In this document: one piece after another, positions 1-17,469 of the stretch
Layout of the letters: every line of letters starts with the position of its first letter
How positions within the stretch are numbered: position 1 is the stretch's first letter
DNA from: Acidobacteriota bacterium
Lineage (GTDB): Bacteria; Acidobacteriota; Thermoanaerobaculia; Multivoradales; JBCCEF01
Length of the DNA: 64,000 bases
Assembly: GCA_039028635.1 (NCBI GenBank)
Contig: JBCCHV010000005.1
Coordinates: 12,118 to 76,117, forward strand
Direction of reading: 5' to 3'
Program-made: the position numbers and the translations under genes
Notes under the pieces: model-generated
Told to the model about the DNA's origin: nothing
Databases searched by the model: none
Seen by the model: the letters and a program-made list of their open reading frames with translations, nothing else

Positions 1-428
1 GCGAGCTTTACCAAGAGGTCATCCTCGACCACAACCGACGTCCCCGGAACTTCGGTTCGCTGGAGGACGCCACCGCCCAGGCCCACGGCCACAACCCACT
101 GTGCGGTGACGAGGTGGACGTCTCTCTGCGAGTCGCCGACGGCGTCGTCGAGAAGGTCGCCTTCGAAGGCATTGGCTGCGCCATCTCGACCGCCTCCGCC
201 TCGCTGATGACGGAAGCCATCCAGGGCCGAGCCCTCGCCGAGGTGCAGGCCCTGTTCACGGATTTTCACCAGCTCATGATCGGCGACGCCCCGGCCGACC
301 CCGATGCCCTCGGCAAGCTCGTCGCCCTCGAGGGAGTGCGGGAGTTCCCCATGCGAGTCAAATGCGCCACCCTCGCCTGGCACACCCTGCAATCGGCCCT
401 CGCCTCGACCAAGGAACCCGTGCCATGA
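1..428 (+). CDS. sufU: SufU/IscU-like Fe-S cluster assembly scaffold, 5'-truncated at the window edge
   Basis: Translation from position 3 reads ELYQEVILDHNRRPRNFGS...NPLCGDEVD...GIGCAIS...RVKCATLAW. These are the conserved NifU/SufU Cys motifs. Confidence 0.8.
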   Translation, partial: ELYQEVILDHNRRPRNFGSLEDATAQAHGHNPLCGDEVDVSLRVADGVVEKVAFEGIGCAISTASASLMTEAIQGRALAEVQALFTDFHQLMIGDAPADPDALGKLVALEGVREFPMRVKCATLAWHTLQSALASTKEPVP

Positions 429-787
429 CCGAAGAGCAAAAGCCCCAAGCGTCCGAGACCGAGCCGGCTGCCGAAGCCGCCAGCGAAGGCCTCGAAGAAC
501 AAGTCGTCGCCGCCGTCAAGACCATCTTCGACCCCGAGATTCCGGTCAACATCTACGAGCTCGGACTGATCTACGACATCGCCATCGGCGATGGCAACAA
601 GGTCGACGTCAAGATGACCCTCACCTCTCCGGCTTGTCCCGTTGCCGGCAGCCTGCCCGGCGAGGTGCGCGACAAGATCCTCTCGATCGAGGACGTCGCC
701 GACGCCGAGGTCGAAGTGGTCTGGGATCCGGTGTGGAATCCCAGCATGATGTCCGAAGCCGCCCGCCTGCAGCTCGGCATGTTCTAG
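426..787 (+). CDS. sufT: DUF59/MIP18-family Fe-S assembly protein (SufT-like)
   Basis: About 120 aa beginning MTEEQKP. It carries the DUF59 signature ...IYELGLIYD...VDVKMTLTSPACPVAG..., lies downstream of sufU and overlaps it by a few nt. Confidence 0.7.
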
Positions 788-803
788 GCAGCTATTCGAC
801 GCC

Positions 804-1524
804 TGGCGGACTTCGAGATCGACGAGGACCTTCGACGCACCGCGACACTTCCCGGCGCTGTCTACTCGGACCCCACAGTCTCGGACCGGCTCCGCGAGCG
901 CCTCTTCACTCGGGCGTGGCATTTCCAGGCGGCAGCGATCGCCTCCGAGCTCCCGGCCAGGCCCTCCCAGTCTTCCTCGGCGAAGGCCTCCTCGACGAGC
1001 CTCTGGTGCTCACCCGAGGTTCGTCAGGATCAGCTCCACCGCCATTCGAAGGTCTCCACATCCCCTACGTCCCCCCGGACCTCTCCGGCGCCCTCGACTT
1101 CGAGGTCTCCAGAACCGAACTTTTTCCCCGGTGCAACGTACAAGTCGGCACGGCCGGCGCCGGAGAAGAGACTTCGATCTACCACCAGAATCCCCGCACG
1201 CCTGACAGCGCATCGCGCGCCTATGGCTTTTAGCTCTTCCCGAACACCATGCTCAACGGATACCCCTGGGGTACCACCGTCAAGGTCGTGCGGCCTCTGG
1301 GCCCTCTTCGTCTCCGGGTCTCGTTCCTAAGCTACGTGCGCGATCCCTCTCGCCTCGACCGCGGAGCCGGAACCGCCCTCGATCGGGTCGAACGCGAAGA
1401 CGAAGTCATCGTCGAAAGCATCCAGGCGGGCACCCTCTGCCGCCGAGGTCACACTTCTCCGCCCCGCGAGCAAGGGGTTCGCCCTTTTTCATCGCCTATT
1501 GGCGAGATACCTGACCTGAGTTGA
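804..1524 (+). pseudogene. Decayed paralogue of the Rieske oxygenase at 2592-3671, with the Rieske domain deleted and multiple frameshifts
   Basis: Three reading frames carry segments homologous to the intact gene: FEIDEDLRRTATLPGAVYSDPTV..RERLF..WHF, then SDRLRAPGQALPVFLGEGLLDEPLVLTR followed directly by FEGLHIPYVPP (about 135 codons including CxH...CxxH are missing), then LFPNTMLNGYPWG..VVRPLGPLRLRVSFLSYV..GAGTALDRVEREDEVIVESIQ. Confidence 0.7.
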
Positions 1525-1546
1525 GTTCGAACGGACGGAGAAAACC

Positions 1547-2347
1547 ATGAAAGCACTGTTTCCGCGGGTTGCCTTGGCTCTTTTCGTCTCGAGCCTCGCG
1601 GCTCCAGATGTCGTCTCGGCCATCATCATTCGCCACGATCGAGAGGACGCGCGGTATCTCGAGCTCGCCAAAACTTACTCTCAGGTCGTTCGCATGCAGG
1701 CCCCGGGAGAGATTCCAGATGGCGTGGGCACTCTCGTCGCCCCCCAATGGGTCGTCACCGCAGCCCACATCGCCACCCTCCTCGAGCCCGGGCACATCGT
1801 CAAGGTGGCAGGTCGCGATTTCGAGATCGCGGCCATCTTCATCCATCCGTCCTGGAACGACGGACCCCACGACATCGCCCTGGTTCGGCTCGAATCCGAG
1901 GTTCCCGAAAGCCACCCGGCACTTCTCTACAGAAAGCGCGACGAGATAGGTCAGCTCATCACGGTCGTGGGCGATGGCGACAAGGGCGACGGACGGACGG
2001 GACCAGTGGGCAACGACGGTCGAATGCGAGCCGCCACCAATCGCATCGACGAGGCCAGCGATTTCTGGCTCAAGTTCGTCTTCCGAGACGGCCCCAGGGC
2101 GACAGATCTCGAGGGAATCAGCGGACCTGGAGATAGCGGTGGACCAGCCTTTGTCGAGCATCGGGGTGACCTCTATGTCGTCGGAGTCGGTTCGGGTCAG
2201 AGTACTCGCGCCACCCAAGGGCGAGAAGGTCTCTACGGAGTCACCGAGTACTACACGCGGGTCTCCTCGTACCTCAAGTGGCTAGACGACACGATGAGGT
2301 CTCCAGGCGCCCAAGGGGCAGCTCCTCCAGTCCAGGAGACTCCGTAA
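1547..2347 (+). CDS. Secreted trypsin-like (S1 family) serine protease
   Basis: Signal peptide MKALFPRVALALFVSSLAAP. Catalytic triad contexts TAAHI, DIALVRL and GDSGGP. RBS ggagaaaacc precedes the ATG. Confidence 0.85.
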   Translation: MKALFPRVALALFVSSLAAPDVVSAIIIRHDREDARYLELAKTYSQVVRMQAPGEIPDGVGTLVAPQWVVTAAHIATLLEPGHIVKVAGRDFEIAAIFIHPSWNDGPHDIALVRLESEVPESHPALLYRKRDEIGQLITVVGDGDKGDGRTGPVGNDGRMRAATNRIDEASDFWLKFVFRDGPRATDLEGISGPGDSGGPAFVEHRGDLYVVGVGSGQSTRATQGREGLYGVTEYYTRVSSYLKWLDDTMRSPGAQGAAPPVQETP

Positions 2348-2591
2348 GGAACCTGTCCGTTCTCGCCCGATGTCGCGAGCCGGCCCTCAACAGGTGTCAA
2401 CCAACTGATAACCGCTGTATCTCCGGTGTCCGGACGCGATTTCCCGTCCTCGACGGACAGCCAGTCCGCCTGCGGCACCCTCTCGGCCCCACAGCCCCCT
2501 AAACCGCGCCTTGCGAACTTGGGGAGCAACCCAGGCTTGGGAGTAAGATCCACCTCCAAGGTCAGGATCCACGACCCCGGAGGTGAGGCGG

Positions 2592-3671
2592 ATGCACTTC
2601 GAGATCCATCCGGACATTCGGCAGGCCTCGACCCTGCCCGGCTCCTTCTACTCGGACCACACCGTCCACGAGCAGCTCAAGGAGCGGCTCTTCCCGCGCT
2701 GTTGGCATTTCCTCGGCGACTCGGATCGCCTGCGGGCGCCGGGACAGACCCAGCCGGTCACCCTCGCCGAAGGCCTCCTCGACGAGCCCCTGGTCCTGAC
2801 CCGCGACCGCCAGGACCAGCTTCACTGCCTGTCGAACGTCTGCACCCACCGCGCCAACCTGGTGGTGGAAAGCGAAGGCGTCGCCCGCCAACTGCGCTGC
2901 CGCTACCACGGCCGCCGCTTCCAGCTCGACGGCCGCTTCCTCTCCATGCCCGAGTTCCAGGACGCCGTCGACTTCCCCGGCGATTGCGACCACCTTCCGA
3001 AGCTGCCCCTCGAAAGCTGGGGGAAGTTCCTCTTCACCTCGCTCGATCCGGGCCATTCATTCCAAGAGCTGATCGCCCCGGTCGAAGAGCGCGTCGGCTG
3101 GCTTCCCCTCGCCGAGATGAAGTTCGACGCCGGCCGCTCGCGCGACTACCTGGTGCAGGCCAACTGGGCCCTCTACTGCGACAACTACCTCGAGGGCTTC
3201 CACATCCCCTACGTCCACCCCGGCCTCGCCGGTGTCCTCGACTACGGCAGCTACACCTCCGAGCTCTTTCCTTGGTGCAACCTCCAACTCGGCGTCGCCG
3301 CCGACGGTGAAGACGCCTTCGACCTGCCTTCGGGCTCGCCGGATGCCGGTCAGCGCATCGCCGCTTACTACTTCTGGCTCTTCCCCAACACCATGCTCAA
3401 CGTCTATCCCTGGGGGATTTCCGTCAACGTCGTCCGGCCCCTCGGGCCCCATCGCACCCGAGTCAGCTTCCTCAGCTACGTCCACGACCCCGACCGCCTC
3501 ACCCACGGAGCCGGCGCCGCCCTCGACCGCGTCGAGCGCGAAGACGAAGTCATCGTCGAAAGCGTCCAGCGCGGCACCCGCTCCCGCCTCTACCAGCGCG
3601 GCCGCTACTCACCCCAACGGGAGCAAGGCGTCCACCACTTCCATCGGCTGCTGGCGGAGGGGTTGGAGTAG
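2592..3671 (+). CDS. Rieske [2Fe-2S] non-heme iron oxygenase, alpha-subunit-like
   Basis: Rieske motif CLSNVCTHR...CRYHGRRF. C-terminal catalytic/SRPBCC-like region. RBS ggaggtga before the ATG at 2592; the ORF track starts at the GTG at 2583. Confidence 0.85.
   Translation: MHFEIHPDIRQASTLPGSFYSDHTVHEQLKERLFPRCWHFLGDSDRLRAPGQTQPVTLAEGLLDEPLVLTRDRQDQLHCLSNVCTHRANLVVESEGVARQLRCRYHGRRFQLDGRFLSMPEFQDAVDFPGDCDHLPKLPLESWGKFLFTSLDPGHSFQELIAPVEERVGWLPLAEMKFDAGRSRDYLVQANWALYCDNYLEGFHIPYVHPGLAGVLDYGSYTSELFPWCNLQLGVAADGEDAFDLPSGSPDAGQRIAAYYFWLFPNTMLNVYPWGISVNVVRPLGPHRTRVSFLSYVHDPDRLTHGAGAALDRVEREDEVIVESVQRGTRSRLYQRGRYSPQREQGVHHFHRLLAEGLE
3642..3671 (+). repeat. 30-bp repeat copy A (catcggctgctggcggaggggttggagtag), the 3' terminus of the Rieske oxygenase gene
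   Basis: Matches 7395-7424 at 28 of 30 positions and 1489-1506 partially. Confidence 0.7.
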
Positions 3672-3743
3672 GCCGAGGCGGCATCTCTGTGAGGGAAGCC
3701 CCTACAGCACTGCGGGGTACCTGAGGACCGCCGGCTCGGTGTC

Positions 3744-6034
3744 CTACGACCCCTGCTCCGAAGGACTGGTTTCTCGCTCGGGGACAACAAGCTCCACCTC
3801 TCCTCCAGCGGGGAGGGTATCGCTAACGCAGGTCGGTTGCTCCTGGCGCCAATCCCTCCGGGTCGTCGCCGCAGCAAGGTAGTCCGCCTCGGTCATGACG
3901 CATGCGGTGTAAAGCCCTGGTGCCATCCTGGGAATTTCGAGGCTCTTGCTACCAAGCTGCCACGTCACACCATGGCCCCGAGACCATTGCCATAGCCTCT
4001 GCTGAGACAGTGGGATGCCATCCTGGAGAATCACGACCTGGCCTCGCTCGCGGCTCGAGGAGGAGTCAACCTCTCCTTCGAAGCGGATGAAGAGACGTCC
4101 CCATTCTGCGGAGACCTCGAACGTCAGGTCTTCGGAAAAGGGAACGCTCCTGGCCTGAAGGCCGTGCCCGGGCGCACTGACGATCGCGTGGAGTTGTTGG
4201 GCATCGGCTCGCAGGCGAGCGTCGAAGTAGCCGGATAGATCTGTCCTGGCCGAGTCTCCAGACGCGGCGAGGAATGGTTGGACCACTTCGAGATCAACAG
4301 AGGCTCCCGGCACGGGACTACCCTTCTCGGAAACCACGCGGCCACGAATTGCCTGCTTGCTGTGCAGCACGAGCTCCGCCGGCCCCCAGGGAGTCCCCTC
4401 GACGACCGAGGCCATCACGCTGTCACTCGACCTCTCGTCATCGCCAGCGCCCTTCCGGGCGGCCACCGAAACCGCCCCCTCGCGAAACGCCCGGAGCCGG
4501 AACTCACCATCCTCCTCGGAGCGCCCTGAGGCCCTCGCGTCCGAACCCCGCAAGAACACCTGCGCTTCCGCCACAGGGCGTCCTTGTTCATCGACCACCC
4601 GACCGAAGACCTCCGTCTCCGGAAGCACAATGTCGAGATCCGCCTCGCCCTTCGAATCTGCGCGAACCTCGACCCGGTCGCGCAGCCCCTCCAACTCCAA
4701 CTCCGGAACGTCGACCTCGATATCCCACCATCCATCCTCTGGAAGTACCCCGATGAAAGCCCCGTCTCGGTCTGTCGGCGTGTGGGCGCGAGAGATCCCG
4801 GACCGACCACCAAACCAGATCGTGCCTTCCACGGGCTCTTCGCCATAGAGCAACTCCCCGCGGACTATCACGAGATCGAGAGTGACCGCGATACGAGGGT
4901 CGGCAGCGGTCACCATGACATCGGGTCGCCCAAACATCTGGTTCCCCAGGGAGTCCTGCACCTTGACGAGGAATGTTCCTGGCGCTTGGTTCTCGAGCAC
5001 CGTGCGCCCTTGAGCCAAGGCTCCACGAAACGCGGAGTCTCCGTCGGCTGAGCCAGAGAGGTCCGACATGCGAGAGACAGAAACCTGCCACGGCTTGCCG
5101 CGCCAGTCCTCCGGGGGTTCGACCAGGACCTCGATTTCGAGAGGGCGGTAGAGAGTGATGGGCGCCTTCAGACGTACTTCGGCCGAGTCCCAAACTTCCA
5201 GCGGAAACTCTCTCGCCTCCACGAATCCTGGATGAGCAACCTCCAGAACGTAGGCTCCGGAAGCGAGTCCTGCAAGCTGGAAGAATCCATCCCCCTGCAA
5301 GGGCACCTCGAGCACCGGCTTCGCCAGCCGTTGCGCCAACCCAGTATCGGCTCCACGAGGAACGAAGGGGAAGAGCCTAGCGGAACCTTCCGAGGTTAGA
5401 AGTTCGCCGTCAATCGACTCGGCTCGACCAACCAGAGATCCCCCTTCTTTCAAGTCGAAGGGGGCAAAATGCACCACCGAGGCTGGCTTGACCTCGACCC
5501 CGAACTCATACATCGGGACGTAGCCCGCAACCCGAAACTCGGCATCTAGCAATCCCGCGGGCACGTCACAGGACCACTTATCCTCCTCCACGGGGCAGCG
5601 CGCTCGAGAGGTAGGAACCGCACCCGATCGCAGGGGCTCCGGCGAGGAGAAGCGGATTTCGAGACTGCTCGGTAGTTTGCCCTTGCCGTCGAGCAGTTTC
5701 AGCGTGCCCGAGAGTCGCCCCGCCGGCCGAGTGAGAAAGTGGAGCTGCGTGTCTCCCGAGGCCTCGAAGGACTGCCTGCGACTTCGAGACAGGCCTCCCA
5801 TGAGGTTTCCGCCGGAAGCACCAAGGAGGCCAACCCCAAGTCATCGAACGCGACCTCGCGAGTCTCAGGTTCCTCGCCAAGAAGCCGAAGCTGCACCAAT
5901 CCGAGGGCCTCGGCCTCACCCTCAACACGCTCACCTGACAGAGAGACGTGAACGTCCGAGGCTTCCATGGACGGCACCGCCAGCCCCAGGAGCAGAAACG
6001 GGGCAGCCAGGCCGACAGCGAGCGATCTCGTCAT
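3744..6034 (-). CDS. Large secreted protein with repeated carboxypeptidase-regulatory-like beta-sandwich domains; the N-terminal signal-peptide segment is in another frame (frameshift or pseudogene?)
   Basis: 685-aa ORF 3744-5801 with repeated GxVVDxxGxPVxxAxV motifs (FGRVVDEQGRPVAEAQVFL, IRGRVVSEKGSPVPGASVDL). ORF 5699-6043 in a different frame encodes MTRSLAVGLAAPFLLLGLAVPSMEA, a signal peptide. The ATG at 6034 overlaps the upstream gene's stop codon (ATGA). Confidence 0.5.
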
Positions 6035-6384
6035 CCTGGGCAATACCCGTTGCAGTCTGGCTCCTCCGTCTCTTCGACCTCGACGAGGAGGCAGGCACCG
6101 CCGCTGGTTACACAGAGGACGCCATGCATGTCACGAATGTTCTCGCAGTAGATCCCGTCGCCCGTTCCGTAATTCGAAGCGGACTGGCACTTGGTGTCAC
6201 AGGGGCCGAACCAACCGGAGCAGTTTGAGTTGTCTGGAACGCAGTTGAAACAGCCAACCATCCTGGCTCCATGTGCCGCCCAAACGCCACCGAAACCTAG
6301 CAGAACAGTGAGAACCAGAATGGCTCTCCGGCACGAAAATCGGTCCGTTAGTCGAGCGTCGCCCTGGCCCGCGCCACCATACAT
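6031..6384 (-). CDS. Possible small secreted Cys-rich protein (117 aa, about 10 Cys after a signal-like segment), in frame with the orphan Rhs fragment
   Basis: MYGGAGQGDARLTDRFSCRRAILVLTVLLGFGGVWAAHGA/RMVGCFNCVPDNSNCSGWFGPCDTKCQ...DCNGYCPG. Its stop overlaps the ATG of the downstream large secreted protein (ATGA). Confidence 0.3.
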   Translation of the reverse strand: MYGGAGQGDARLTDRFSCRRAILVLTVLLGFGGVWAAHGARMVGCFNCVPDNSNCSGWFGPCDTKCQSASNYGTGDGIYCENIRDMHGVLCVTSGGACLLVEVEETEEPDCNGYCPG

Positions 6385-6906
6385 GTCCCGCTCGTGGCCG
6401 GTGAGCCTCATCCGCTCGCTCGACCCGTTGGGCACGGACTCTTCCCCAAACGGGAAGTAGGTATGAAGCCCCGCACTGCGCCCGTCGGCCTTGGTGATGA
6501 GCCTCGGGGTGCCGAGATGGTCGAGGTGGAAGAACCTCCATCCCTCGGCCGGCCTCCAGGAAGCCAGCAGCTGACCGTCCCGATGGATGTGGTCTTCCCG
6601 GTGGTTCCAGGTGCCGGCGGAGCCTCCGACGGTACCCCATGTGCGCAGCACCTAGCCGCCGAGGTCGCGCAGGGTCCAGGTCTCTTCGATCGGGCTTTCG
6701 GCCCAGTGGAGGGTGTTGATGCGCTCGTCGTCGGCGGTGTAGAGGTAGTAGTCCTCGATGGCGCCGTCGCCGCTCTCCTTGGACCTCAGCTTCGACAAGG
6801 CGTCCCAGGTGTAGGTGTAGCCGGTGGTGCCGGAGCCGAAGTGGAGCTGATTGCCAGCGGCGTCGCAGCCGGCCCCGGTCCAGCGATTGGCGGCCTCCCT
6901 GACCAC
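6031..6906 (-). pseudogene. Orphan Rhs C-terminal core fragment, disrupted by an in-frame TAG and lacking the DPxGL/toxin end
   Basis: NRWTGAGCDAAGNQL..YLYTADDERI..PIEETWTLRDLGG*VLRTWGTVGG..ASWRP..LDHLGTPRL..FPFGE..TGHERD aligns with residues of the full Rhs (TNRLTGAGYDAAGNQL...TWTVRDLDGQVLRTW...). TAG at 6652-6654 sits where the full gene has CAG. The sequence diverges after GHERD. Confidence 0.7.
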
Positions 6907-7010
6907 CGGTCCAATCCTTGACAGCCTTCAGGAACCGCCACCATAAGAGCCCCGCAAGAGCTTTTCCTTCCAATAGTCCTGGAGAAGAGCGAAACTCAAG
7001 AGCGGTTCGA

Positions 7011-7397
7011 CTAGTCGTCCCACTGGAAAACGGTCTCAGTTCCCGCCTCGAACGGAAGATCATCATCAGGATGGAGAAGCCAGCAAACTTGGTAGAGGGT
7101 TGGCCAATCTCGAAGACGTCTCCAAGTGAAATCGACCCTTTCAACCTGTCGATCGAGTGGACCGGTCCAAAGGCGAAATCCTTCGACATACATCTCTCCA
7201 ATCACCACCGCATTCTCCTCCAAAAGAGAACCCAGCAGATCGAGAACGGCTCCCCTAATATCTTCCTGAGACTCAGAATACCCCAGCTCTTGACGCACCG
7301 ATTCGACCAGATCCCAAAAGCCGAATTCGCGTTCCTCGTCGACTTCACTTGTAACTGCCACAAAAATTCGCTTCTTTTGACTCTTTGAGAGTAGCAT
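7011..7397 (-). CDS. Rhs-associated immunity-like protein 2, paralogue of the 7548-7964 gene
   Basis: 128 aa in a local AT-rich patch. Shares GFRLW.G....VERVDFTWRRLRDWP with imm1 (GFRVWPG...VERIRFAWRLLEDWP). Confidence 0.55.
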   Translation of the reverse strand: MLLSKSQKKRIFVAVTSEVDEEREFGFWDLVESVRQELGYSESQEDIRGAVLDLLGSLLEENAVVIGEMYVEGFRLWTGPLDRQVERVDFTWRRLRDWPTLYQVCWLLHPDDDLPFEAGTETVFQWDD

Positions 7398-7424
7398 CGG
7401 CTATTGGCGGAGGGGTTGGAGTAG
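7395..7424 (+). repeat. 30-bp repeat copy B (catcggctattggcggaggggttggagtag)
   Basis: Matches 3642-3671 at 28 of 30 positions. Overlaps the start codon of imm2 on the opposite strand. Confidence 0.7.
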
Positions 7425-7547
7425 CGATCCAGAGCGATCAACCCAACATAGCTACGCAAAAATAAGCCGATGCAATCACAAAGAGGACAGCCGCGAACAT
7501 TAGGTGTGGCCTATCACCTCAATATCGGCACGGCACCCATAGAGGAC

Positions 7548-7964
7548 TCATGGCGGAAGACGACCAGCGTCTCCGTCCCGAGAATAGCTAGCCGGCAGTA
7601 GGTCACTCTCGGTCTCCATCGGAATGTCGTCACCGGCGGGAAAGAAGCAGCAGACATCATCGATCGATGGCCAATCTTCAAGAAGTCTCCACGCGAACCG
7701 AATTCGTTCCACGTGAATATTGAAGTCTCCAGGCCAGACCCGAAAACCACTCTCATAGAGATTTCCGACCTGCATCTTCTTGGATGCCAAGAGCTCTCGT
7801 AAAACTCTCAGAGTCGCCTCCTGTATCGATGCTTTCGACTCGCGGCGACCCAGAAGATCCCTAATATCCTCTACCAGAACGTAGAACTGCATCTCTCTGG
7901 CCTCTTCCAGAAAAATCATCCACTCGGACTCAAGAACTTCAGACTGCTCTACTGTAAGTCGCAC
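7548..7964 (-). CDS. Rhs-associated immunity-like protein 1, the likely cognate of the Rhs C-terminal toxin
   Basis: 138-aa ORF starting 11 nt after the Rhs stop. Low-GC composition. No signal peptide. Confidence 0.6.
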   Translation of the reverse strand: MRLTVEQSEVLESEWMIFLEEAREMQFYVLVEDIRDLLGRRESKASIQEATLRVLRELLASKKMQVGNLYESGFRVWPGDFNIHVERIRFAWRLLEDWPSIDDVCCFFPAGDDIPMETESDLLPASYSRDGDAGRLPP

Positions 7965-7974
7965 CGTGCTACTC

Positions 7975-10900
7975 CTAATTTTCCAGGAACTTTATCTTTC
8001 TGACTTTCAAGCCTGGAAGGTCCAAGTTGATTGTGGAATGACCTGATGCAGACCTGGACTTAGCTCGATAGCTGACAGTTGCGCCCGGAGCCAGCTTCAC
8101 CGTAACTCGCCCTGGCCCCCGAGAGACGACAGAGCCACCTCTCGACAGTCGCCCGAACAACTTCTGTGCAGCCTTCTCACCACCCGGCAAAAATCTAATC
8201 TTCTTACTGGATCCGGCCACCCCAATGAGCCGCCCTGCCGGCCTTACGATCGCGGTAGCCCTGGAGATCGTTGCCTGCTCCGCCAAAGTAAACCCTGTAA
8301 CGAGCGCGCCAGCAGCCACCGCCGAGGGAGCCTCCACGGCAGCATCTCTAAAGAGCTGCAGCCTCTCGGACGGTAAGGCGCTGGAGTCGATGCCCTCGGC
8401 CTCGAGCTCTGCTGCCATGGAGCCGGGATCCGGTTGATCCGCTTCGTCCTCCGGATTTTCGTCGCCCTCGAGGTACTCGCCAAGGGCTGCCTGAAAGAAC
8501 AAGGCAATCTCATCGACTGCACGCTGGAAGGCATTTCGCCCCTGCTTCGAAGCCGGCAGCAGGCCATCGGGATCAACCCACTTGAGGGGGTTATTGAGAG
8601 CGTAGGTGTAGCGATTCAGGGACTGGGGGTTCTTGAGGCTCCCTCCCACGGGGTCGACACTGAGAAACCTGCCGTTGAGGGGTGAGCAGTACCTGGCGTG
8701 CATGTAGTCAAGGTCGTCATCTTGGCCAGGTGTTCCGTGATGATCGCGTTCGTGGCCGGTGAATTTGAGCCTCTCCTCGAGGTGGACGGTGCCGAGCTCT
8801 TCTCCGAAGGGAAAGAAGACCGAGAGACGCGGAATCTGTCCATTGGCATTGACCGAGAGCCGTGGCGTTCCGAGGTGGTCGAGAAGCTGGAGGCGGACTC
8901 CCTCCTGCGGCCGCCACGAGGCCAGCAGACTGCCTTCACGGTAAATGTAGTCCTCGTGGTGGGTCCAGGCCCCGCTGGAGCCGCCGACGTTGGTCCATGT
9001 GCGGAGTACCTGCCCATCGAGGTCGCGCACGGTCCAGGTTTCCTCGATCGGCTGAACGGCATTGCGGAAGGTACAGATGCGCTCGTCATCGGCGGTGTAC
9101 AGGTAGAGATCGTCCTGAGTGCCGTTGTTGCGGCGAGCGCGCTTCATCTTGGAGAGAGAGTCCCACTCGTAAGCGAAGCCCTGAGTGCCGACACCCCAGT
9201 TGAGCTGATTGCCCGCCGCGTCGTAGCCGGCCCCGGTCAAGCGATTGGTGACCTCACTGGCCACCGGGGTCCGAGTCGAGGTCGAGCCGCCCGAGGTGGT
9301 GGTGATCGATCCGAGATTGCCGAAACGGTCGTAACCGTAAGTCTGCCGATCGCCTCCCCCGAGCACCCCTTCCACCAAACGACTGACCGAGTCGTAGCGA
9401 TAGCGCTCGTCACCGAGGGCCTTGACATTGCCGGCACCGTCATACTGATAACTCAGCCCATCGGCGGAAGCTCCAGGTGCGAGCGCAAGCCCGGGATCGG
9501 CCAGACCGTTGAAACGTACGCCCACCGACCGCGGTCGCCGCATCCCCCAGGGATCGCGGGCCTGAAAATAGGTGATGCCGCCGCTATGGGCCACTTCCTG
9601 AAGCATGCCGTTGTCATGATACGAAACCGTCGCCTGCACGCCCGGGTAGCCGCCGACAGCGGTCAGGCTCCCCTGGACGTAGGTGGAGGTGGCGGCACGC
9701 ACGGAGTCGGAGCCGGCGCAGGGGAAAAAGGTGCAGCGGGGAAAGGTCACCTGACGCAAGTTGCCGAGATCGTCCCAGGTCCACCCTTGAGTGAAGGACT
9801 GCAGCGAAGACAGGGCCGTGCGCCGAGAGCTGACCCGCCCGCCGAGCCCACCATAGGCGTAGGTCTCGGTCACCGAGACGTCGATCTCGGGACCATTCGG
9901 GTTCCAGGGAGGCACGAACCAGTTGTGACGGGTGGCCGTCTTGGTCTTGCCCTTCGAACGGTCTAGCGAGTTGGTGCCGATTCCATAGGTGAATGTCTTG
10001 AGGAATCGCCGTAGTCCGGCGCTCTCTCGAATCGACAGCAGACGCTCGGCGCGGTCGAAGTCGAACTCGAGATCGAAGGCACCGGCCGCCGCCCCCACCC
10101 ACTGCCGGTGGGCATGGCCGCGCGCATCGTACTCCCGGTAGAAAAGCGTGCCGTTGCCGGAAAAGCCCAGCTCGGGATGGGTTTCCGAAAGGAGAAATCC
10201 TCGACCGTCATACTGAAAGCGGCGCACCTGGTGACCACCGGTGCGGGGCGTCCGCGCTTCGATCAGGCGATCGGCGGCATCGTAGAAGTAGCTCGTCGTG
10301 ACCTCCGCCCCAGCGTTCCCGGAGGGCTCTTCCACCGCCGTCAAACGCCCATACCGGTCGTAGGTCTCGGTGGTGGTCGAAGGCGTCTCGGCGCCATTCG
10401 TCCCGGTGGCTACCTCGACCGTACGGGCCAAGGTTCGGATGCCCTGATAGGTGAACCGAATCGGATTGCCGTCCGGCAAGGTGAGGGTCCGCGGCCTGCC
10501 GAAGGGGTCATAGCCGGAGTACACGGTTCGAGGATAGGACGATCCGTGGTCACTGGTTCGGCGGGAGGACTGGGACCGCTTCCAACCGTTCGGGTAGTAG
10601 GCCGTCTCGACCTCGCTCCAAACACCATCGGGCAGAAGCTCGCGGTCCTGCCAGACGCGTCCCCAGGGATCGAAAAAGGTATGGCGCTGGGCCAGGGTGG
10701 CACCGCTCGTCTGCCCATTGGGCCGATGGATCACCTTCACCTGGCCAGCCCGGCTCGGCAGGGATCGCAGATAGTCGATCTCGATCCAGGCTCCCTGACC
10801 CGCCGTCGGCTGAATCGCCGTCAGCCGACCGAGAGCGTCATAGGAGTAGTCGGTTCGGACGCCTGCCGGATCCTTGGAATGCCGCACCAATCCGGTGGAG

Positions 10901-13002
10901 GCATCGATTCCCTGATCCAGCGTGAAGAAGTGCTCCGCCCCTGTCAGCGCACTGCCATTGCCCTTCCGATACTCGCTGCGTGAGCGCTGCCCGTGTTGAT
11001 ATTGATGCTTGATCCAGTAGACCGCTGCGGCCGGCACGCCGAGGCCACACACCGGATTGAAGACTCCCACCGATTGCAGATCGCCGCCGTAGAAGCGCTC
11101 CGCCGTCACCTTGCCGAAACTGTCTTTGTTGCGCACCACCACCACATCGTCAGTGCCACGAGTCGTTCCTGCGAGTTGGCGAGAGCGACGCAAGAAGCCC
11201 GTGCCGGCATCGAAGCAGTATTCGGCCTTGACCTCGGAAGCACCCTGCCTCACCGAGGTGTCCGTGAAGGTACCCAAAACCCAAGGGGAAGTGGTCGGCC
11301 AAGGGCTATAGCTGTGGCCTGGTAGGGGGTTGTTGCTGAAGGCGTCGTAGCTGTAAGTGCCGCGGCTCGGGTTGTAGGCCGAGGTCACCGTACGGGCCGG
11401 CCCCAGGGAGGACGAACCACCGGTGGTCACCACCCGGTAGTGGCCGAGGCCATCGAAATCGGAGGACGCGACGTCGGTGGTGCGATTGCCATCGGCCTCG
11501 TAGACCGTGCGTTGCCTTTCGAGACGGCGGTTGGAGTCGTACCAATCGCTGGTGTAGCGCACGTTGCCGAAGGGTTTGAGCTTGTCGCGGCCGTAGTTCA
11601 CGTAAATCGAGCGCCGCAGAGTGCCGCTACCGGCCCGGCCATCCCAGATCTCTTGCGACAGGAACCGGCCACCGTGAGACCTACCTCGCCGGTAGGGCAG
11701 GCCATACTCCCAGGCAGTCGGATCATTCGGAAACATAGGCTTCTCGGTGAAGTGGTGCACCGTGTCGTCTCCGGCCGGCGAGGTCACCGTGATCTGACGC
11801 CCGAAGTCGCCGTTGAGCTGGTTGCGGCTCTGGCGATAGGTCCAGGTGCAATCCTGAGTGCCGAGGTCGAAATCGAAACACTGTCCGTTGCTGTCGAGAA
11901 CCCGCTTGGTCTCGACCGCCAAGGTTTCTTGGTCGGCCAGACTTTCCGGCACGTGTGGGGCTCTCGAGAGCAAGGTGAAGTTCTGATAGGTCCACTCGAT
12001 CAGACCACGAGTCGGGGCCCGCAACTGCCGGATCGCCCCCGGCAAAGAAGCGATGGTCGTCCCGAGCTGATTGCAGGAGCTGTAATAACTCGGCATCTCC
12101 CAGGAGGAGCCGTCCGGGAGATCGATGCGGGTCAACAGGTCGACCATCGCGTTCGGCCCCGTCGGGTCGCTGTGACCGTCGGGATAGGGAATCTGATCGT
12201 CCTCGCAATGGCGCTCGATGGCCGTCTCCTGATAATGGAAGTTGTAAATCGCCCGAGAGCCACCAAAGGCCTGCAAGTTGACCGACTTCACCCGCCATTG
12301 CTGGGTCATCGGCGAACGCTCGAAGTCGACCGTATGCTCCCGGCCCAGCCGATCTTCCAGCTCCCAGTCTGAGCCTGCCAGGTCGACCTTCACCCAGTTG
12401 CCTTGGCGATCTTCCATCCGCGTCAGCCGCCAGCGGCCGTTGGCCTCGTGCTCGAAAGTTCGGATCGTGCCATCGGGAAACTCGACCCGACGGGTCACCC
12501 CTTGGGCACTCAGCCGAAGGTAGGAGTTGTCGCGGCTGTAGAGAAAACCGGTGCCGATAGTCTCCCCGACGTGAAGCGACTGGTAGAAAGCGCTCTCCGA
12601 GCCGTCCGCTCCGACAAAGCGCCAGGGGCCCGGGGCATAGGTGTAGTTGGGCGACAGCAAGGCCCCACCGAGCGACAGGGTCCAGCCCAGACCGGCATTG
12701 CTTTGCCGATTCGGATAGACCTCTGTCAATTCAAAGTCGCCGATTCGGCGGGTCTCCAGATCCCACACCTTGGCGTTGTAGGACAGCGTCAGGCCATAGG
12801 AGAAGCCGCCCGCCACCGGCGTTTCTGAGCCGATCGGCAAGGCCAGAATCAAGTTGCCGTTGAACAACGCCACGGAGTCGATGCCGGAGTAGTCGTAGAC
12901 CTTCTCCGCCGAAAAGCCTCGAGCCTCGATCGGATCCTGCTGGGCAAAGGCCAGCAGCGGGACCCACAATACGGCGAGGAGAACCAGCCACCGAAGCTTC
13001 AT
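7975..13002 (-). CDS. Rhs/YD-repeat polymorphic toxin with N-terminal Sec signal peptide (WapA-like) and a variable C-terminal toxin module
   Basis: 1675 aa. Signal peptide MKLRWLVLLAVLWVPLLAFAQQ. Many YD repeats (YDALGRLTAI, YDRYGRLTAV, YDAADRLIEA). Rhs core end ...PxxxxDPDGL (WVDPDGLLPAS) at about 8552-8596. About 190 aa of C-terminal domain in lower-GC DNA. Confidence 0.9.
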   Translation of the reverse strand: MKLRWLVLLAVLWVPLLAFAQQDPIEARGFSAEKVYDYSGIDSVALFNGNLILALPIGSETPVAGGFSYGLTLSYNAKVWDLETRRIGDFELTEVYPNRQSNAGLGWTLSLGGALLSPNYTYAPGPWRFVGADGSESAFYQSLHVGETIGTGFLYSRDNSYLRLSAQGVTRRVEFPDGTIRTFEHEANGRWRLTRMEDRQGNWVKVDLAGSDWELEDRLGREHTVDFERSPMTQQWRVKSVNLQAFGGSRAIYNFHYQETAIERHCEDDQIPYPDGHSDPTGPNAMVDLLTRIDLPDGSSWEMPSYYSSCNQLGTTIASLPGAIRQLRAPTRGLIEWTYQNFTLLSRAPHVPESLADQETLAVETKRVLDSNGQCFDFDLGTQDCTWTYRQSRNQLNGDFGRQITVTSPAGDDTVHHFTEKPMFPNDPTAWEYGLPYRRGRSHGGRFLSQEIWDGRAGSGTLRRSIYVNYGRDKLKPFGNVRYTSDWYDSNRRLERQRTVYEADGNRTTDVASSDFDGLGHYRVVTTGGSSSLGPARTVTSAYNPSRGTYSYDAFSNNPLPGHSYSPWPTTSPWVLGTFTDTSVRQGASEVKAEYCFDAGTGFLRRSRQLAGTTRGTDDVVVVRNKDSFGKVTAERFYGGDLQSVGVFNPVCGLGVPAAAVYWIKHQYQHGQRSRSEYRKGNGSALTGAEHFFTLDQGIDASTGLVRHSKDPAGVRTDYSYDALGRLTAIQPTAGQGAWIEIDYLRSLPSRAGQVKVIHRPNGQTSGATLAQRHTFFDPWGRVWQDRELLPDGVWSEVETAYYPNGWKRSQSSRRTSDHGSSYPRTVYSGYDPFGRPRTLTLPDGNPIRFTYQGIRTLARTVEVATGTNGAETPSTTTETYDRYGRLTAVEEPSGNAGAEVTTSYFYDAADRLIEARTPRTGGHQVRRFQYDGRGFLLSETHPELGFSGNGTLFYREYDARGHAHRQWVGAAAGAFDLEFDFDRAERLLSIRESAGLRRFLKTFTYGIGTNSLDRSKGKTKTATRHNWFVPPWNPNGPEIDVSVTETYAYGGLGGRVSSRRTALSSLQSFTQGWTWDDLGNLRQVTFPRCTFFPCAGSDSVRAATSTYVQGSLTAVGGYPGVQATVSYHDNGMLQEVAHSGGITYFQARDPWGMRRPRSVGVRFNGLADPGLALAPGASADGLSYQYDGAGNVKALGDERYRYDSVSRLVEGVLGGGDRQTYGYDRFGNLGSITTTSGGSTSTRTPVASEVTNRLTGAGYDAAGNQLNWGVGTQGFAYEWDSLSKMKRARRNNGTQDDLYLYTADDERICTFRNAVQPIEETWTVRDLDGQVLRTWTNVGGSSGAWTHHEDYIYREGSLLASWRPQEGVRLQLLDHLGTPRLSVNANGQIPRLSVFFPFGEELGTVHLEERLKFTGHERDHHGTPGQDDDLDYMHARYCSPLNGRFLSVDPVGGSLKNPQSLNRYTYALNNPLKWVDPDGLLPASKQGRNAFQRAVDEIALFFQAALGEYLEGDENPEDEADQPDPGSMAAELEAEGIDSSALPSERLQLFRDAAVEAPSAVAAGALVTGFTLAEQATISRATAIVRPAGRLIGVAGSSKKIRFLPGGEKAAQKLFGRLSRGGSVVSRGPGRVTVKLAPGATVSYRAKSRSASGHSTINLDLPGLKVRKIKFLEN

Positions 13003-13646
13003 CGCTCACCTCCCGCCGCCACCGTCTGAGGCACGGTCGTCGCCGTGATCGCGAGCGACTCCGAGTCGACCACGAACACGACGTCACCGCCTGCGAATCC
13101 GAGGCCGCGCTCCTGCGCACCGAGGAGACGATGCAGGCGCGAGGGCTCGATCTGGACCCGAGCGTTGGCCTTGCCATCGCCGTCCGCCGACCCGCCGTCA
13201 CCGACCGTCCCCACCGAAACCCGCGCCTTGTCCCCGGGGCGAATCCACATCACCTCCAGCGTGCGGCGAGCGAGCACCAGCTCCGAGCCATCGCCGGCAA
13301 ACGCCGACAACGGAACCGTCAAGGGGTCCAGATCCGGCAACTCTCGAATCACCCACGCACCCGACGAGAGATCCGCCGAAGCCCAGACCGAAAGTTCCGG
13401 AAGGTCCTCCACGCTATCCAGCGAGACTTCGCCGTCCTGGTCATCGTCCCGCAGCGTCAATGACCAGCTCTCGAGTCGAGGACGGTAACCCTGCCGAGAC
13501 CGGCCCACCCCCAGCAGTGCCACCTCGCCACCAGGAGACACACCTGAAATCGAAACCGTCCGGTCGCTTACATCAACCTCCAAACCTGCTAGCGATCCGC
13601 CTACCGACAAAAATCCCAACACCGCCAACATCAACGCTCGATGCAT
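12999..13646 (-). CDS. Secreted hypothetical protein, immediately upstream of and overlapping the Rhs gene
   Basis: Signal peptide MHRALMLAVLGFLSVGGSLAG. GGGAGG RBS. Its stop overlaps the Rhs start (4-nt overlap). Confidence 0.55.
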   Translation of the reverse strand: MHRALMLAVLGFLSVGGSLAGLEVDVSDRTVSISGVSPGGEVALLGVGRSRQGYRPRLESWSLTLRDDDQDGEVSLDSVEDLPELSVWASADLSSGAWVIRELPDLDPLTVPLSAFAGDGSELVLARRTLEVMWIRPGDKARVSVGTVGDGGSADGDGKANARVQIEPSRLHRLLGAQERGLGFAGGDVVFVVDSESLAITATTVPQTVAAGGER

Positions 13647-13702
13647 CACGTCCAACCTCCCAAGAAATGCCCTCGTCCTTCCAGGACAACGTAAAACTGG
13701 AT

Positions 13703-14200
13703 TCAGTTCCTTGCCAAAGCGCTACAGCAAGCCACGTGCCATGGGGGACTTCGCCGTTTTACAGGCGTTTTCGGCGATCGGGCCCGAAAAAGATGTCCGG
13801 AAGATGTCCGGACGGACGTCTTCCGGACGTCCTTTTCTGCCTTTCCGGAGCTGAATTCGAGGTCGGCGAGGGTCTCGAGGCAGGTGGCCAAGCGGTCGAG
13901 GGAGTCGGCCGCCTGGAGGGCGTAGGTCGCCCGGGTGATGTCGCAGGCATCGGCCGGCCGGAGCTGGCGCAGCGTCGCCTCCAGACGGCGCAAGTCTCGG
14001 GCGACGGCCGCGATGGTCGAGGTCGTCGAGCGGTCGGCACCCTCGGGCACCACTCCCTTGGGCACCGGCCGCCCATCGACGACAACCTGCTGGAGTCGCT
14101 GACTGAGCCAGCGCTCGGATCGCTCCTCGTCCTTCTCCAGCGAGGTCAACGCGGCTTCGCGGAGGACCGATGCTCGCCGCGCCTCGTCGTCCCGATTCAT
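13703..14200 (-). CDS. Hypothetical protein (gene B of a two-gene operon), charged, probably coiled-coil
   Basis: MNRDDEARRASVLREAALTSLEKDEERSERW.... Its ATG overlaps the TGA of gene A (ATGA). Confidence 0.45.
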   Translation of the reverse strand: MNRDDEARRASVLREAALTSLEKDEERSERWLSQRLQQVVVDGRPVPKGVVPEGADRSTTSTIAAVARDLRRLEATLRQLRPADACDITRATYALQAADSLDRLATCLETLADLEFSSGKAEKDVRKTSVRTSSGHLFRARSPKTPVKRRSPPWHVACCSALARN

Positions 14201-14724
14201 GAAGCGTTGGCCTGCTTCGGGTGATCCGGGCACTGCTCCGAAAGGCGACGAGCGAGGACGAGGTCGACCTCGGTGATGGCACCGGAGGCCGGCGTGGTGA
14301 GGATCACCCAGGCGGTGTTGAGCACCACCGCCAGGGCCGGCAAGGCACCGGCCGCTTGAATGATCCCGCTGACGAAGGCCGCGAAGCTCAGCGCCGCGGC
14401 AGAGCTCTGGAGCACGAAGGGACGCACCAGACAGCGGTTGTCCTGGGACAGCCGCCAGCCCTCGTAGTCGCTTCGGCGGTCGTAGAGCTTCACGCTGCTG
14501 AGACGAGGCAGCGCGACGGACAGCTCCGGAGCCGCCGTGTCGCCAGTGCCGAGGAGCGCCTCCCGCCCGCGAGTCAAGGTGCTCTGAATGCGCTCGGGCT
14601 TGAGATGACCCGGCAAATCTCCCGGCACCGGGAACGCCGACAAACCGCTTTCCCACAGGAGTTGGTAGTAGGCCACTGGATCCAGCTCGTCCGGCTGCGA
14701 AACGGTGGTTGGAGAAGAGCTCAT
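14197..14724 (-). CDS. Hypothetical membrane-associated protein (gene A), with a C-terminal hydrophobic hairpin
   Basis: MSSSPTTVSQPDELDP...AALSFAAFVSGIIQAAGALPALAVVLNTAWVILTT.... GGGAGG RBS 5 nt before the ATG. Confidence 0.5.
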   Translation of the reverse strand: MSSSPTTVSQPDELDPVAYYQLLWESGLSAFPVPGDLPGHLKPERIQSTLTRGREALLGTGDTAAPELSVALPRLSSVKLYDRRSDYEGWRLSQDNRCLVRPFVLQSSAAALSFAAFVSGIIQAAGALPALAVVLNTAWVILTTPASGAITEVDLVLARRLSEQCPDHPKQANAS

Positions 14725-14861
14725 GGCAACCTCCCAGTCGAGTGAAGTTCGGGACGGGCAGAACCCCGCACAGCGCATCTGAGGAACATGCCCGCCTTCG
14801 CGATTACGGACATACTGTATATTAAAAGAAGTCTTTCGTCAAGTCTTTTGAAGTCAAAATA

Positions 14862-14873
14862 GATCTATAGATC
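14862..14873. promoter_or_regulatory. Perfect 12-bp palindrome GATCTATAGATC in the AT-rich divergent promoter region, flanked by repeated TGAAGTC / AAGTCTTT motifs
   Basis: Read directly in sequence 14821-14890, between divergent gene A (minus strand) and the XRE HTH gene (plus strand). Confidence 0.35.
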
Positions 14874-14959
14874 CGATCTGAAGTCGCTGACGATCGCTTC
14901 TTTCGACCTTCTCCACTGCTATCAACCTCTCTTGCGCACTTTCTGAGAGATCGTGTAGG

Positions 14960-15406
14960 ATGTTTCCAGATATGAGACACACGGCGGACCCCCTCGGCAT
15001 TGCCCTGCGCTCGCTGCGCGAGCAGGCGGGACTGCAGCAGGGCGAGCTCGGCCTCAAGGCCGCGGTGACACAGTCGAACGTCAGTGCGTACGAGTTGGGC
15101 AAACGGGCCCCACAATGGCCAACCCTGCTGCGCCTGCTCGACGCCATGGGCGCCGATCTGCTCGACCTGAGCGTGCGCATGGGAGAGCCGGGTCGGTTGG
15201 AGTCGACCCACGAGGCGCTGCGTCGACTCCTCGGCAACGGGGTCTTCGAGCAGCCCGCGGAGGGCGAGCCGGCAGCGACGACGGAGCATCCGCTAGACTT
15301 CTTAGTTGATGCAGTCATCGATCGACTGACGGAACGCACCGCCCTACGGCGCCTGGTCAAGGCCGAGGCCGTGAAGAGCCCGGTGGTGGAGAGGGAAGAG
15401 CGTTGA
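14960..15406 (+). CDS. XRE-family helix-turn-helix transcriptional regulator
   Basis: Cro/C1-type HTH: LGLKAAVTQSNVSAYELGKRAPQWPTLLRLLDAMG. Confidence 0.8.
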   Translation: MFPDMRHTADPLGIALRSLREQAGLQQGELGLKAAVTQSNVSAYELGKRAPQWPTLLRLLDAMGADLLDLSVRMGEPGRLESTHEALRRLLGNGVFEQPAEGEPAATTEHPLDFLVDAVIDRLTERTALRRLVKAEAVKSPVVEREER

Positions 15407-16473: not shown

Positions 16474-16791
16474 CCGTTGGGATCAGCCCCCGGATTCGTC
16501 TCATTGTCCCCACTGCCATTCGCCGAAGCCGTGTCTCCCCCTATCCCCAAGAGCTCGAGGATCCATTCCCACATAGAACGCCTCCTTTAGCCGTGGGCAC
16601 GGCAGCGGCCTCCATGGCCCGCCGGGCCACAGTCCGTTCAATTCTCTCACCTCGCCTCTGCTCGGCGAAGGGGCCAGGGAATCTACGCACGTAATTACGC
16701 GAAGTCGGACCGAGAGGCCGGGCTCGGAATACCATTCGCCCAGGCCGCCTTGAAGGAGACGAGGCTCTCCTCCATGACTGAGCCCGGACCG

Positions 16792-17469
16792 ATGATGCGA
16801 CGCCTCTTCCTGCCCTTCCTGCTCCTCATGGCGATTCCCCTGCCCAGCAGCGCCCAACCGGCGACGGAGGAGTTTCGCTATCGCTGGCACCTGGGGAGCC
16901 TGGTGGGCCGGGTGGCGGGGCTGTTTCTGCCCAACAAGGGCGACGGCGTGATGCGCTTTTCCGAGCAGCCCGATGGCACCCTCCACAGTGAGCTGCTGGT
17001 GACCTCGGAAAAATCCGACGATGGTGAGTTCTGGCGCTATGGCTCGACCATCGACCGCGATTCGCGGCAGGCCCTGAGCGCCTGGTCGGCCTACCGCTGG
17101 CGCGGCAAAGAGAAGGAAAAGCGCGACGACATCGCCGAGCCCGGCGTGCTCGACATCGTCTCCGGCATCTGGGCACTGCGACAGGACACGCCGGAGCGTC
17201 CCCGGCAGCTCACCATCTGGTCCGACGGCAAGGTCTACCCGGTGGTGGTGATTCCGCGCGGCCGCGAGAAGCGCCGTTTCGGCGAGCGCGAAGTGAGCAC
17301 GCGCCACTGGACCATTCGCGGCATCGACGCCCCCGAAGGGCGCCGCTGGAAGGGCCGCCTGGAGCTCTGGCTGAGCGACGACGAGGCCGCCCTGCCGGTG
17401 GAAATCCGCATCTCCCGCAGCCTGGCGGACCTACGCCTCGAGCTACAGCCGCCTGCCGAATCCCAGTAA
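16792..17469 (+). CDS. DUF3108-family exported protein
   Basis: Signal peptide MMRRLFLPFLLLMAIPLPSSA. Family assignment is by resemblance only. Confidence 0.5.
   Translation: MMRRLFLPFLLLMAIPLPSSAQPATEEFRYRWHLGSLVGRVAGLFLPNKGDGVMRFSEQPDGTLHSELLVTSEKSDDGEFWRYGSTIDRDSRQALSAWSAYRWRGKEKEKRDDIAEPGVLDIVSGIWALRQDTPERPRQLTIWSDGKVYPVVVIPRGREKRRFGEREVSTRHWTIRGIDAPEGRRWKGRLELWLSDDEAALPVEIRISRSLADLRLELQPPAESQ

Follow-up and report, generated by a model that had tools for sequence, protein, structure and literature searches.

Why should the last 30 nt of an oxygenase gene recur 3.7 kb downstream, between two immunity-type genes of an Rhs locus? This question is raised by a 64-kb stretch of contig JBCCHV010000005.1 (assembly GCA_039028635.1, positions 12,118 to 76,117; hereafter the window) from an uncultured lineage of Acidobacteriota, in which an intact gene for the alpha subunit of a Rieske ring-hydroxylating oxygenase is followed by an accessory island that carries an Rhs gene of full length plus two small predicted immunity-type genes, imm1 and imm2. 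An earlier note on this DNA had read the two copies of the gene end as attL/attR-type scars of site-specific or short-homology recombination. Our analysis indicates that the repeat almost certainly marks a recombination junction in an accessory region, and that a duplicated gene end beside accessory DNA is insufficient for calling an att site. As an explanation of the second copy, we give about an even chance to its being the relic of a second, closely related Rieske allele or gene copy, still attached to its own downstream DNA (spacer, imm1 and Rhs) and joined to imm2 by an illegitimate crossover at a 3-nt microhomology.

Results

Extent and reality of the repeat

The final 30 nt of the Rieske gene (CATCGGCTGCTGGCGGAGGGGTTGGAGTAG, 3642-3671, forward strand) are its last nine codons and stop codon (HRLLAEGLE*), and a second copy on the same strand, at 7395-7424, is identical to them at 28 of 30 positions. 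When the window was compared with itself, a check proposed in the earlier note, these were the only two matches to the 30-mer with at most three mismatches, and 100 shuffles gave none; the analytic expectation for such a match is about 6e-8. Relaxing the search to ten mismatches added a single chance match (20 of 30 nt) at 51590. The direct repeat described in the note is therefore real, and within the 64 kb it is not a generic repeat. Its limits are sharp: gapped local alignment of the two contexts gives a similarity of exactly 30 nt, which begins with CAT and ends with the stop codon (TAG is followed by GCCGAG in copy 1 and by CGATCC in copy 2). No homology past the 30 nt was detected in gapped local alignments of both contexts, the context of an upstream Rieske pseudogene and the related genome L001 described below. 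An independent assembly agrees; run SRR22824298, as assembled in Logan, yields a 1912-bp contig (L089) that matches window positions 8719-6808 at 100% identity and contains copy 2 plus both its junctions, which are thus not an assembly artefact of the metagenome-assembled genome (MAG). When the imm1 and imm2 proteins were looked up by exact sequence, a single Logan contig was recovered, which does not differ from the window.

Copy 2 is located inside the island, between the paralogous AT-rich genes imm2 and imm1, and in the middle of an AT-rich patch (positions ~6900-8100, GC 0.49-0.55) rather than at its boundary, where the note had placed it. The left edge of copy 2 falls exactly on the start codon of imm2 if the ATG at 7397 is used. 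The imm1 and imm2 proteins are 40% identical (E 8e-27), and their alignment is gap-free from residue 1, which supports this ATG; the overlap reported in the note holds on that condition, and it is lost with the NCBI annotation, a 116-aa product starting at about 7361, 12 codons further in. The CAT shared at the junction lies within the range of 3-10 nt counted as microhomology, and 3 nt is also a length easily reached by chance. A further observation concerns the hexamer GAGTAG, which occupies 7389-7394, directly left of copy 2 (codons 2-3 of imm2 on the other strand), and also forms the final 6 nt of copy 2 (7419-7424); the inserted tail is thus flanked by a 6-nt direct repeat, to which no model considered here gives a role.

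Table 1. Coordinates of the repeat copies and surrounding features in the window (GC3, G+C content at third codon positions; L001, the syntenic relative GCA_039030395.1).
Feature	Coordinates	Strand	Remarks
sufT-like Fe-S assembly gene (DUF59/FeS_assembly_P)	425..787	+	Pfam PF01883; 74% identical to the L001 gene, same order
Rieske oxygenase pseudogene	806..1519	+	repeat families D1, D4, D5 and D7 against the intact gene, 73-79% identity; tblastn pieces
Secreted trypsin-like serine protease gene	1547..2347	+	Pfam PF00089; GC3 0.69; no counterpart in L001
Intact Rieske / ring-hydroxylating oxygenase alpha-subunit gene, 359 aa	2592..3671	+	Pfam PF00355 and PF00848; GC3 0.88, core-like
Repeat copy 1	3642..3671	+	last 9 codons and stop of the Rieske gene, HRLLAEGLE*
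DNA absent from L001	3672..16749	.	Rieske gene followed directly by DUF3108 in L001; both repeat copies at or inside the left part
Large secreted CarboxypepD_reg-domain protein gene	3744..6043	-	Pfam PF13620; ORFs 5699-6043 and 3744-5801 overlap in different frames
Small Cys-rich secreted-protein gene, 5' end lost	6031..6357	-	paired with the large gene; in-frame fusion to the Rhs fragment
Orphan Rhs core fragment	6358..6909	-	main Rhs aa 1246-1429, no gaps; repeat families D2 and D3, 73-76% nt identity; protein alignment
imm2, predicted orphan immunity-type gene, AT-rich	7011..7397	-	paralogue of imm1; GC3 0.50
Repeat copy 2	7395..7424	+	28/30 against copy 1; CTG CTG to CTA TTG, both synonymous; left CAT = imm2 start codon; junctions in L089
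AT-rich spacer, copy 2 to imm1 end	7425..7547	.	dissimilar to the DNA that follows copy 1 or imm2
imm1, predicted immunity-type gene	7548..7964	-	directly downstream of the full-length Rhs gene; AGGAG 8 nt before GTG start
Full-length Rhs gene, 1675 aa, signal peptide	7975..13002	-	Pfam RHS_repeat; core ends ...VDPDGL; C-terminal tip ~170 aa, no Pfam hit in tip

Origin of the second tail

Both mismatches of copy 2 are synonymous in the Rieske reading frame, and at both sites copy 2 has the state found in the tail of the upstream Rieske pseudogene (CTATTG). Among the C-terminal tails of 80 relatives, HRLLA is common and the last four residues differ; the tail EGLE* was unique to the window in this comparison, and copy 2 encodes it perfectly. 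Because EGLE* is specific to the lineage, copy 2 must derive from this lineage or a very close relative. By a rough estimate, a fresh copy mutating at random would show two synonymous changes in about 6% of cases and two pseudogene-like changes in about 2%, an estimate of low power given that there are two substitutions. If both changes had instead arisen in the functional gene, the neutral copy would have remained unchanged at all 30 positions, which is unlikely. The pattern favours the idea that the tail in copy 2 diverged while it was part of a functional allele, and not as a fresh copy that was mutated at random.

The pseudogene tail (1490-1519, CAT CGC CTA TTG GCG AGA TAC CTG ACC TGA) reads HRLLARYLT*, with CTA TTG as its third and fourth codons, if the +1 shift before CAT is ignored; it is positionally homologous to the intact tail and equally long up to the stop codon. 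The shorter variant of the repeat reported at the end of the pseudogene corresponds to this tail, which exists, at 1490-1507 rather than 1489-1506, and is not an independent repeat. A model in which the pseudogene and copy 2 are the two parts of one interrupted gene with a 15-nt duplication was rejected, since the pseudogene has its own complete tail and stop codon at the same length, and since copy 2 differs from the intact gene at 2 of 30 positions and the pseudogene at about 23%. Apart from the chance match mentioned above, no third copy of the tail was found at the right end of the island or elsewhere in the window with at most ten mismatches, and a mirror-image scar, namely, a fragment of the sufT tail upstream of the intact Rieske gene, was not found.

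The bracketed 3.7 kb

The DNA between the two copies is a patchwork that consists of a defective two-gene module unrelated to Rhs, a piece of Rhs core that is cut short and interrupted by a nonsense codon, and the orphan gene imm2; it holds several illegitimate joins and decaying genes. GC3 within it ranges from 0.50 to 0.84; the values are 0.84-0.91 for core genes, 0.63-0.77 for island genes and 0.50-0.54 for the two immunity-type genes.

The two-gene module recurs on two unrelated sets of contigs (L090/L091 and L092/L093), where a gene for a Cys/Gly-rich protein of 124-127 aa with a signal peptide is positioned 20-30 nt upstream of a homologue of the large secreted-protein gene; the small proteins align with the Cys-rich open reading frame (ORF) of the window (signal peptide and GCxxC...GxGDGIxC...C motifs). 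The module extends over 3744-6357 (minus strand) in the window, 7597-10337 in L090 and 4456-7125 in L092. Because the pairing of the small and large genes is kept on unrelated contigs, the two form a conserved module that is unrelated to Rhs, and the Cys-rich ORF is not an Rhs toxin tip. In the window, the join to the Rhs fragment has removed the first codons of the module. The large gene has homologues of 750-780 aa, compared with the 615 aa called by NCBI in the window, where a 114-aa ORF with a signal peptide overlaps a 685-aa ORF in another frame at 5699-5801. The large gene is probably frameshifted near 5800, as judged from these overlapping frames; its N-terminal similarity to the homologues was not significant, and a sequencing error or a real truncation may also explain the difference.

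The Rhs fragment carries an in-frame TAG at 6652-6654 in place of a Gln codon and lacks both the DPxGL end of the core and a toxin tip; a spacer of 104 nt separates it from imm2.

The Rhs locus and its immunity-type genes

The imm1 gene starts 10 nt past the stop codon of the full-length Rhs gene. Unlike imm1 with its AGGAG, imm2 has neither a toxin gene nor a Shine-Dalgarno sequence upstream, and its sole match in a database search was itself. No nucleotide similarity was found between imm1 and imm2 or between their flanks and spacers. The two genes may represent an uncharacterised immunity family; ~135 distant representatives were present among 1.84 billion cluster representatives, mostly 100-130 aa long and including some two-domain fusions, and none of ten members tested contained a Pfam domain.

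The locus shows the hallmarks of Rhs tip displacement: a full Rhs gene with a VDPDGL core end, a C-terminal tip and a small putative immunity gene, followed downstream by a low-GC region with a core fragment and the orphan immunity-type gene imm2. Upstream of Rhs, the island (12999-16473) contains a gene for a 218-aa secreted protein, whose stop codon overlaps the Rhs start, two unknown ORFs, one of which (14197-14724) has a Pterin_4a-like domain, a very AT-rich stretch of 150 nt at ~14760-14900 and a divergent pair of genes for an XRE-family regulator and a TPR protein at 14960-16473.

Comparison with related loci

The Rieske protein is 100% identical to P0001, a protein of an Acidobacteriota MAG at NCBI, and its next homologue among 5.8 billion proteins searched is 72% identical. 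The contig of this homologue (L001, GCA_039030395.1) was the only syntenic relative; its gene order is the suf operon, sufU, sufT and Rieske, then directly DUF3108, DUF4331, DUF4198, PTA, purD, PSP1, an Hfq-like gene and PdxA. A tblastn search with L001 proteins showed that synteny resumes at 16843 of the window, which has two extra blocks relative to L001: 788-2590, with the Rieske pseudogene and the trypsin-like gene, and 3672 to ~16750, 13 kb that comprise the whole Rhs locus. An empty site had been suggested as a check; the one in L001 is missing 13 kb, not 3.7 kb. Because L001, although distant (72% amino acid identity), lacks the whole 13 kb, the repeats do not delimit the insert and copy 2 is internal to it.

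We also examined related Rieske loci, 80 in number, together with as much as 10 kb of the DNA on each side. None of the 80 had a second Rieske-like segment, a second copy of its own 30-nt tail within 10 kb on either side (at most six mismatches) or an Rhs gene nearby, and no closer relative or strain variant of the locus was present in the collections searched. Scanning metagenomes for the identical 21-nt block of the repeat gave seven unrelated matches without a Rieske gene, roughly the chance expectation. A GC-rich metagenome contig (L088, Ga0209253_10003843) has at 6301-6332 a 31-nt match that runs from the Rieske tail into the bases just past the gene (TTGGCGGAGGGGTTGGAGTAGGCC...); this contig has no Rieske homologue and the match was treated as chance.

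At the left end of the locus, conserved genes upstream of the Rieske copies end with the sufT-like gene. The pseudogene begins 18 nt after sufT, where L001 has its functional Rieske gene, and the intact, core-like copy stands behind the trypsin-like gene. The pseudogene has an internal deletion of ~370 nt plus frameshifts and has the intact copy as its closest match among the sequences compared, at ~23% divergence overall (0.17, 0.20 and 0.34 at the three codon positions); its GC3 is 0.77, and that of the intact gene is 0.88. The block of pseudogene and trypsin-like gene gives the impression that a foreign Rieske allele had been imported earlier, as an addition, together with its neighbour. 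A foreign-looking Rieske copy would thus have been added here earlier by a process that cannot have been site-specific for the 3' end of the gene.

Searches for a mobile element

No integrase, serine recombinase or transposase domain was found by Pfam in the ORFs of the bracketed segment or the 13-kb island (3672-16800), nor in ~38 ORFs that were scanned elsewhere in the window; the search for an integrase or recombinase that the earlier note had proposed was accordingly negative in the ORFs scanned across the 64 kb. The window contains no tRNA, and positions 1-17500 contain no Rfam family. The 30-mer has no dyad symmetry or inverted repeat, and neither copy folds better than its shuffles. The ends of the segment (GCCGAGG... 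and ...GAGAGTAG) are unrelated, without terminal inverted repeats, and there is no transposase of a transposon with a target-site duplication; transposon target duplications are typically 2-15 bp, compared with 30 bp here.

Discussion

The sharp-edged homology of 30 nt, whose left edge is exactly the ATG of imm2 with a 3-nt microhomology, is consistent with the reading to which we give an even chance, namely, that copy 2 is what remains of another Rieske allele or copy. In outline, this reading postulates two versions of the locus, whose existence we infer together with the direction of transfer and the number of steps. Version A would have contained the oxygenase gene, the two-gene secreted module, the Rhs core fragment, imm2 and, after it, a toxin tip of which nothing is left; version B would have contained the oxygenase gene, the AT-rich spacer at 7425-7547, imm1, a toxin tip and Rhs. 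The two would have been stacked by one homologous crossover, in the oxygenase gene or the Rhs core, and the other end would have been sealed by an illegitimate join at CAT, which encodes His-351 in the oxygenase and, read on the other strand, is the start codon of imm2. Such a process would be homology-facilitated illegitimate recombination, perhaps with a later deletion that removed a longer redundant copy, and would leave imm2 without its toxin and ribosome-binding site and 27-30 nt of the oxygenase tail as a non-functional scar. Version-B DNA could have entered a version-A genome, anchored in the Rhs core; a version-B genome could have taken up version-A DNA, with the oxygenase gene as anchor; or the oxygenase copy could at first have been longer and redundant and later been trimmed by deletion. 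These three routes are not distinguishable, and all of them account for the imm2 start at the junction, its lack of an upstream toxin gene or Shine-Dalgarno sequence, the immunity paralogues on either side and the lineage-specific scar.

Other features of the locus support this stacking of two versions. Similar Rhs toxin-immunity DNA on both sides of copy 2 is what two alleles of a single locus would give, which is not the case for the boundary between an element and its host. The overall architecture, in which a full Rhs gene and its putative immunity gene precede a low-GC region of core fragments and orphan immunity-type genes, is also the one ascribed to tip displacement by recombination (PMC2935791; PMC5727410). 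Illegitimate joining and decay have also occurred elsewhere at the locus (the fusion of Rhs and Cys-rich sequences, the nonsense codon, the probable frameshift, and the Rieske pseudogene with its trypsin-like neighbour), and the absence of a recombinase in the scanned ORFs, of a tRNA and of dyad symmetry is likewise counted in its favour.

Several points weigh against it. Versions A and B would both have to carry unrelated DNA from the first base after TAG, a coincidence that an att-type model does not need, and the only explanations for the boundary at the stop codon are coincidence and a selective disadvantage of deletions reaching into the gene. The end of the identity block at the stop codon and the preservation of an intact Rieske gene are both features that fit an att-like origin. 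No genome with version A or B alone was found, the nearest Rieske homologue being only 72% identical, and the alleles are hypothetical. The argument that the tail diverged within a functional allele depends on two substitutions and has low power, and the GAGTAG that stands left of copy 2 and ends it has no role in the model.

Of the competing explanations, the one that survives best holds that the repeats are attL and attR of a small integrated element or circular cassette; we consider it unlikely. A 3.75-kb circle with an oxygenase tail would have been integrated by a recombinase acting in trans, or by RecA on 30 nt, regenerating the intact gene and leaving the old tail at 7395-7424. Elements of the attL/attR kind that insert in gene 3' ends carry a replacement 3' end, classically for tRNA or tmRNA genes and in some cases for protein-coding genes, and an identity block that ends at the stop codon with the gene kept intact is typical of elements with such targets. 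The window resembles them in that direct repeats of ~30 bp flank extra DNA, and the upstream copy completes an intact gene with identity that runs from an internal point exactly to the gene end; furthermore, circular intermediates were postulated by Jackson et al. for Rhs tip exchange (PMC2935791). However, the segment, the island and the scanned ORFs of the window encode no integrase, recombinase or transposase, the 30-mer has no dyad-symmetric core, and a second tail is present in none of the 80 related loci, where the site is not used. The bracketed DNA is an incoherent patchwork of defective pieces with GC3 from 0.50 to 0.84, and its right end is an immunity-type gene whose paralogue lies just outside; an element with this end would cut the immunity pair. 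The repeats are also off the insert edges set by L001, whose empty site lacks 13 kb, and the right end of the island has no third tail. For these reasons the interpretation as site-specific attL/attR scars in the earlier note is not upheld. Its broader proposal, recombination at the 3' end of the oxygenase gene, stands as regards the duplication of the gene end and the recombination junction and finds no support as regards site specificity; its wording of short-homology recombination is closer to what we find.

Rather unlikely, in our view, is a templated patch, in which repair or replication restart between imm1 and imm2 switched strands through CAT to the oxygenase tail at a distance of 3.7 kb and returned after copying 27 nt. 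In its favour, a single intragenomic event would suffice, without a second allele; the patch is short, its template is nearby, the left junction has a microhomology, and short GAGTAG direct repeats are present at both patch ends. A fresh copy would nevertheless start out identical, and both later changes would have to be synonymous and pseudogene-like by chance, or else it was the functional gene that acquired both, and the neutral copy would have gone without a change in 30 nt, which is improbable; moreover, a right end exactly on the stop codon would be a chance of about 1 in 30.

An extension of the cassette idea appears quite improbable. In this proposal, the oxygenase tail would be a short-homology handle for integrase-free circular cassettes of ~3.75 kb, which would carry 30 nt of the end of the adjacent gene, like the circles postulated by Jackson et al., would enter at the 3' end of the gene by a single crossover and could leave again. 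Rhs-associated DNA could then dock repeatedly at the flanking housekeeping-type gene.

Duplication in tandem of a large unit that ran from the oxygenase tail into the Rhs locus and was later eroded has been largely refuted and is very improbable. Two more duplicated blocks nearby (the Rieske pseudogene and intact gene, and the Rhs fragment and main Rhs gene) speak for it; however, the order is wrong, in that the Rhs fragment should adjoin copy 2 and imm2 does so instead, the spacer after copy 2 is unlike the DNA after copy 1, and imm1 and imm2 share 40% protein identity and no nucleotide similarity, yet the tails are 93% identical. A chance match, a generic dispersed repeat, a transposon target-site duplication or an assembly artefact has nothing in its favour beyond the existence of a short repeat and is refuted by the ~6e-8 expectation, the presence of only two copies in 64 kb and the identical independent assembly, by the unrelated nature of the seven 21-mer metagenome matches, which lack a Rieske gene, and by the absence of terminal inverted repeats and a transposase beside a 30-bp repeat far longer than usual.

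Homology-facilitated illegitimate recombination, invoked for the joining of versions A and B, combines one homologous anchor with one microhomology join and was reportedly described by de Vries and Wackernagel in 2002 for natural transformation of Acinetobacter, Streptococcus and Bacillus. The window resembles such cases in its junction at a 3-nt microhomology, in the foreign or allelic DNA beside a conserved anchor gene and in the short piece of the anchor, which can be duplicated when the join falls inside the paired region. It differs in that the event is deduced from its product alone, the anchor crossover cannot be located, the donor and recipient alleles are hypothetical, and a boundary exactly at a stop codon is not usual for this process. 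The term and its context are also found in PMC6382021.

Orphan core fragments and orphan immunity genes are known from loci with displacement of the Rhs C-terminal tip (Jackson et al. 2009, PMC2935791; Steele et al. 2017, PMC5727410), including a low-GC graveyard of fragments downstream of rhs genes (PMC2935791) and orphaned immunity genes in Snodgrassella of the bee gut (PMC5727410). As in these loci, the window has a full Rhs gene followed by a predicted immunity gene, a low-GC core fragment (aa 1246-1429) with a nonsense codon and a stranded imm2. Unlike the nearly identical fragments of enterobacteria, its core fragment is 73-76% identical to the main core; a piece of a neighbouring housekeeping-type gene stands between its two immunity-type genes, unlike in the published descriptions; and its array has extended into a two-gene module of no relation to it, which was clipped in the process.

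We regard the repeat as an ordinary recombination scar, a further example of a type already known, in a locus whose type is also known, with no new mechanism or mobile element. If the reading as a relic of a second Rieske allele or copy is correct, the 30-nt scar would be a physical trace of a toxin-immunity block entering or stacking in an Rhs locus of an uncultured Acidobacteriota lineage. The donor would have been a close relative with an Rhs locus at the same chromosomal site, and its DNA would have been incorporated through one homologous and one imprecise join. The locus would then show, in a case worked through in detail, how tips and immunity genes turn over in bacteria other than enterobacteria, and would account for imm2 being stranded without a toxin.

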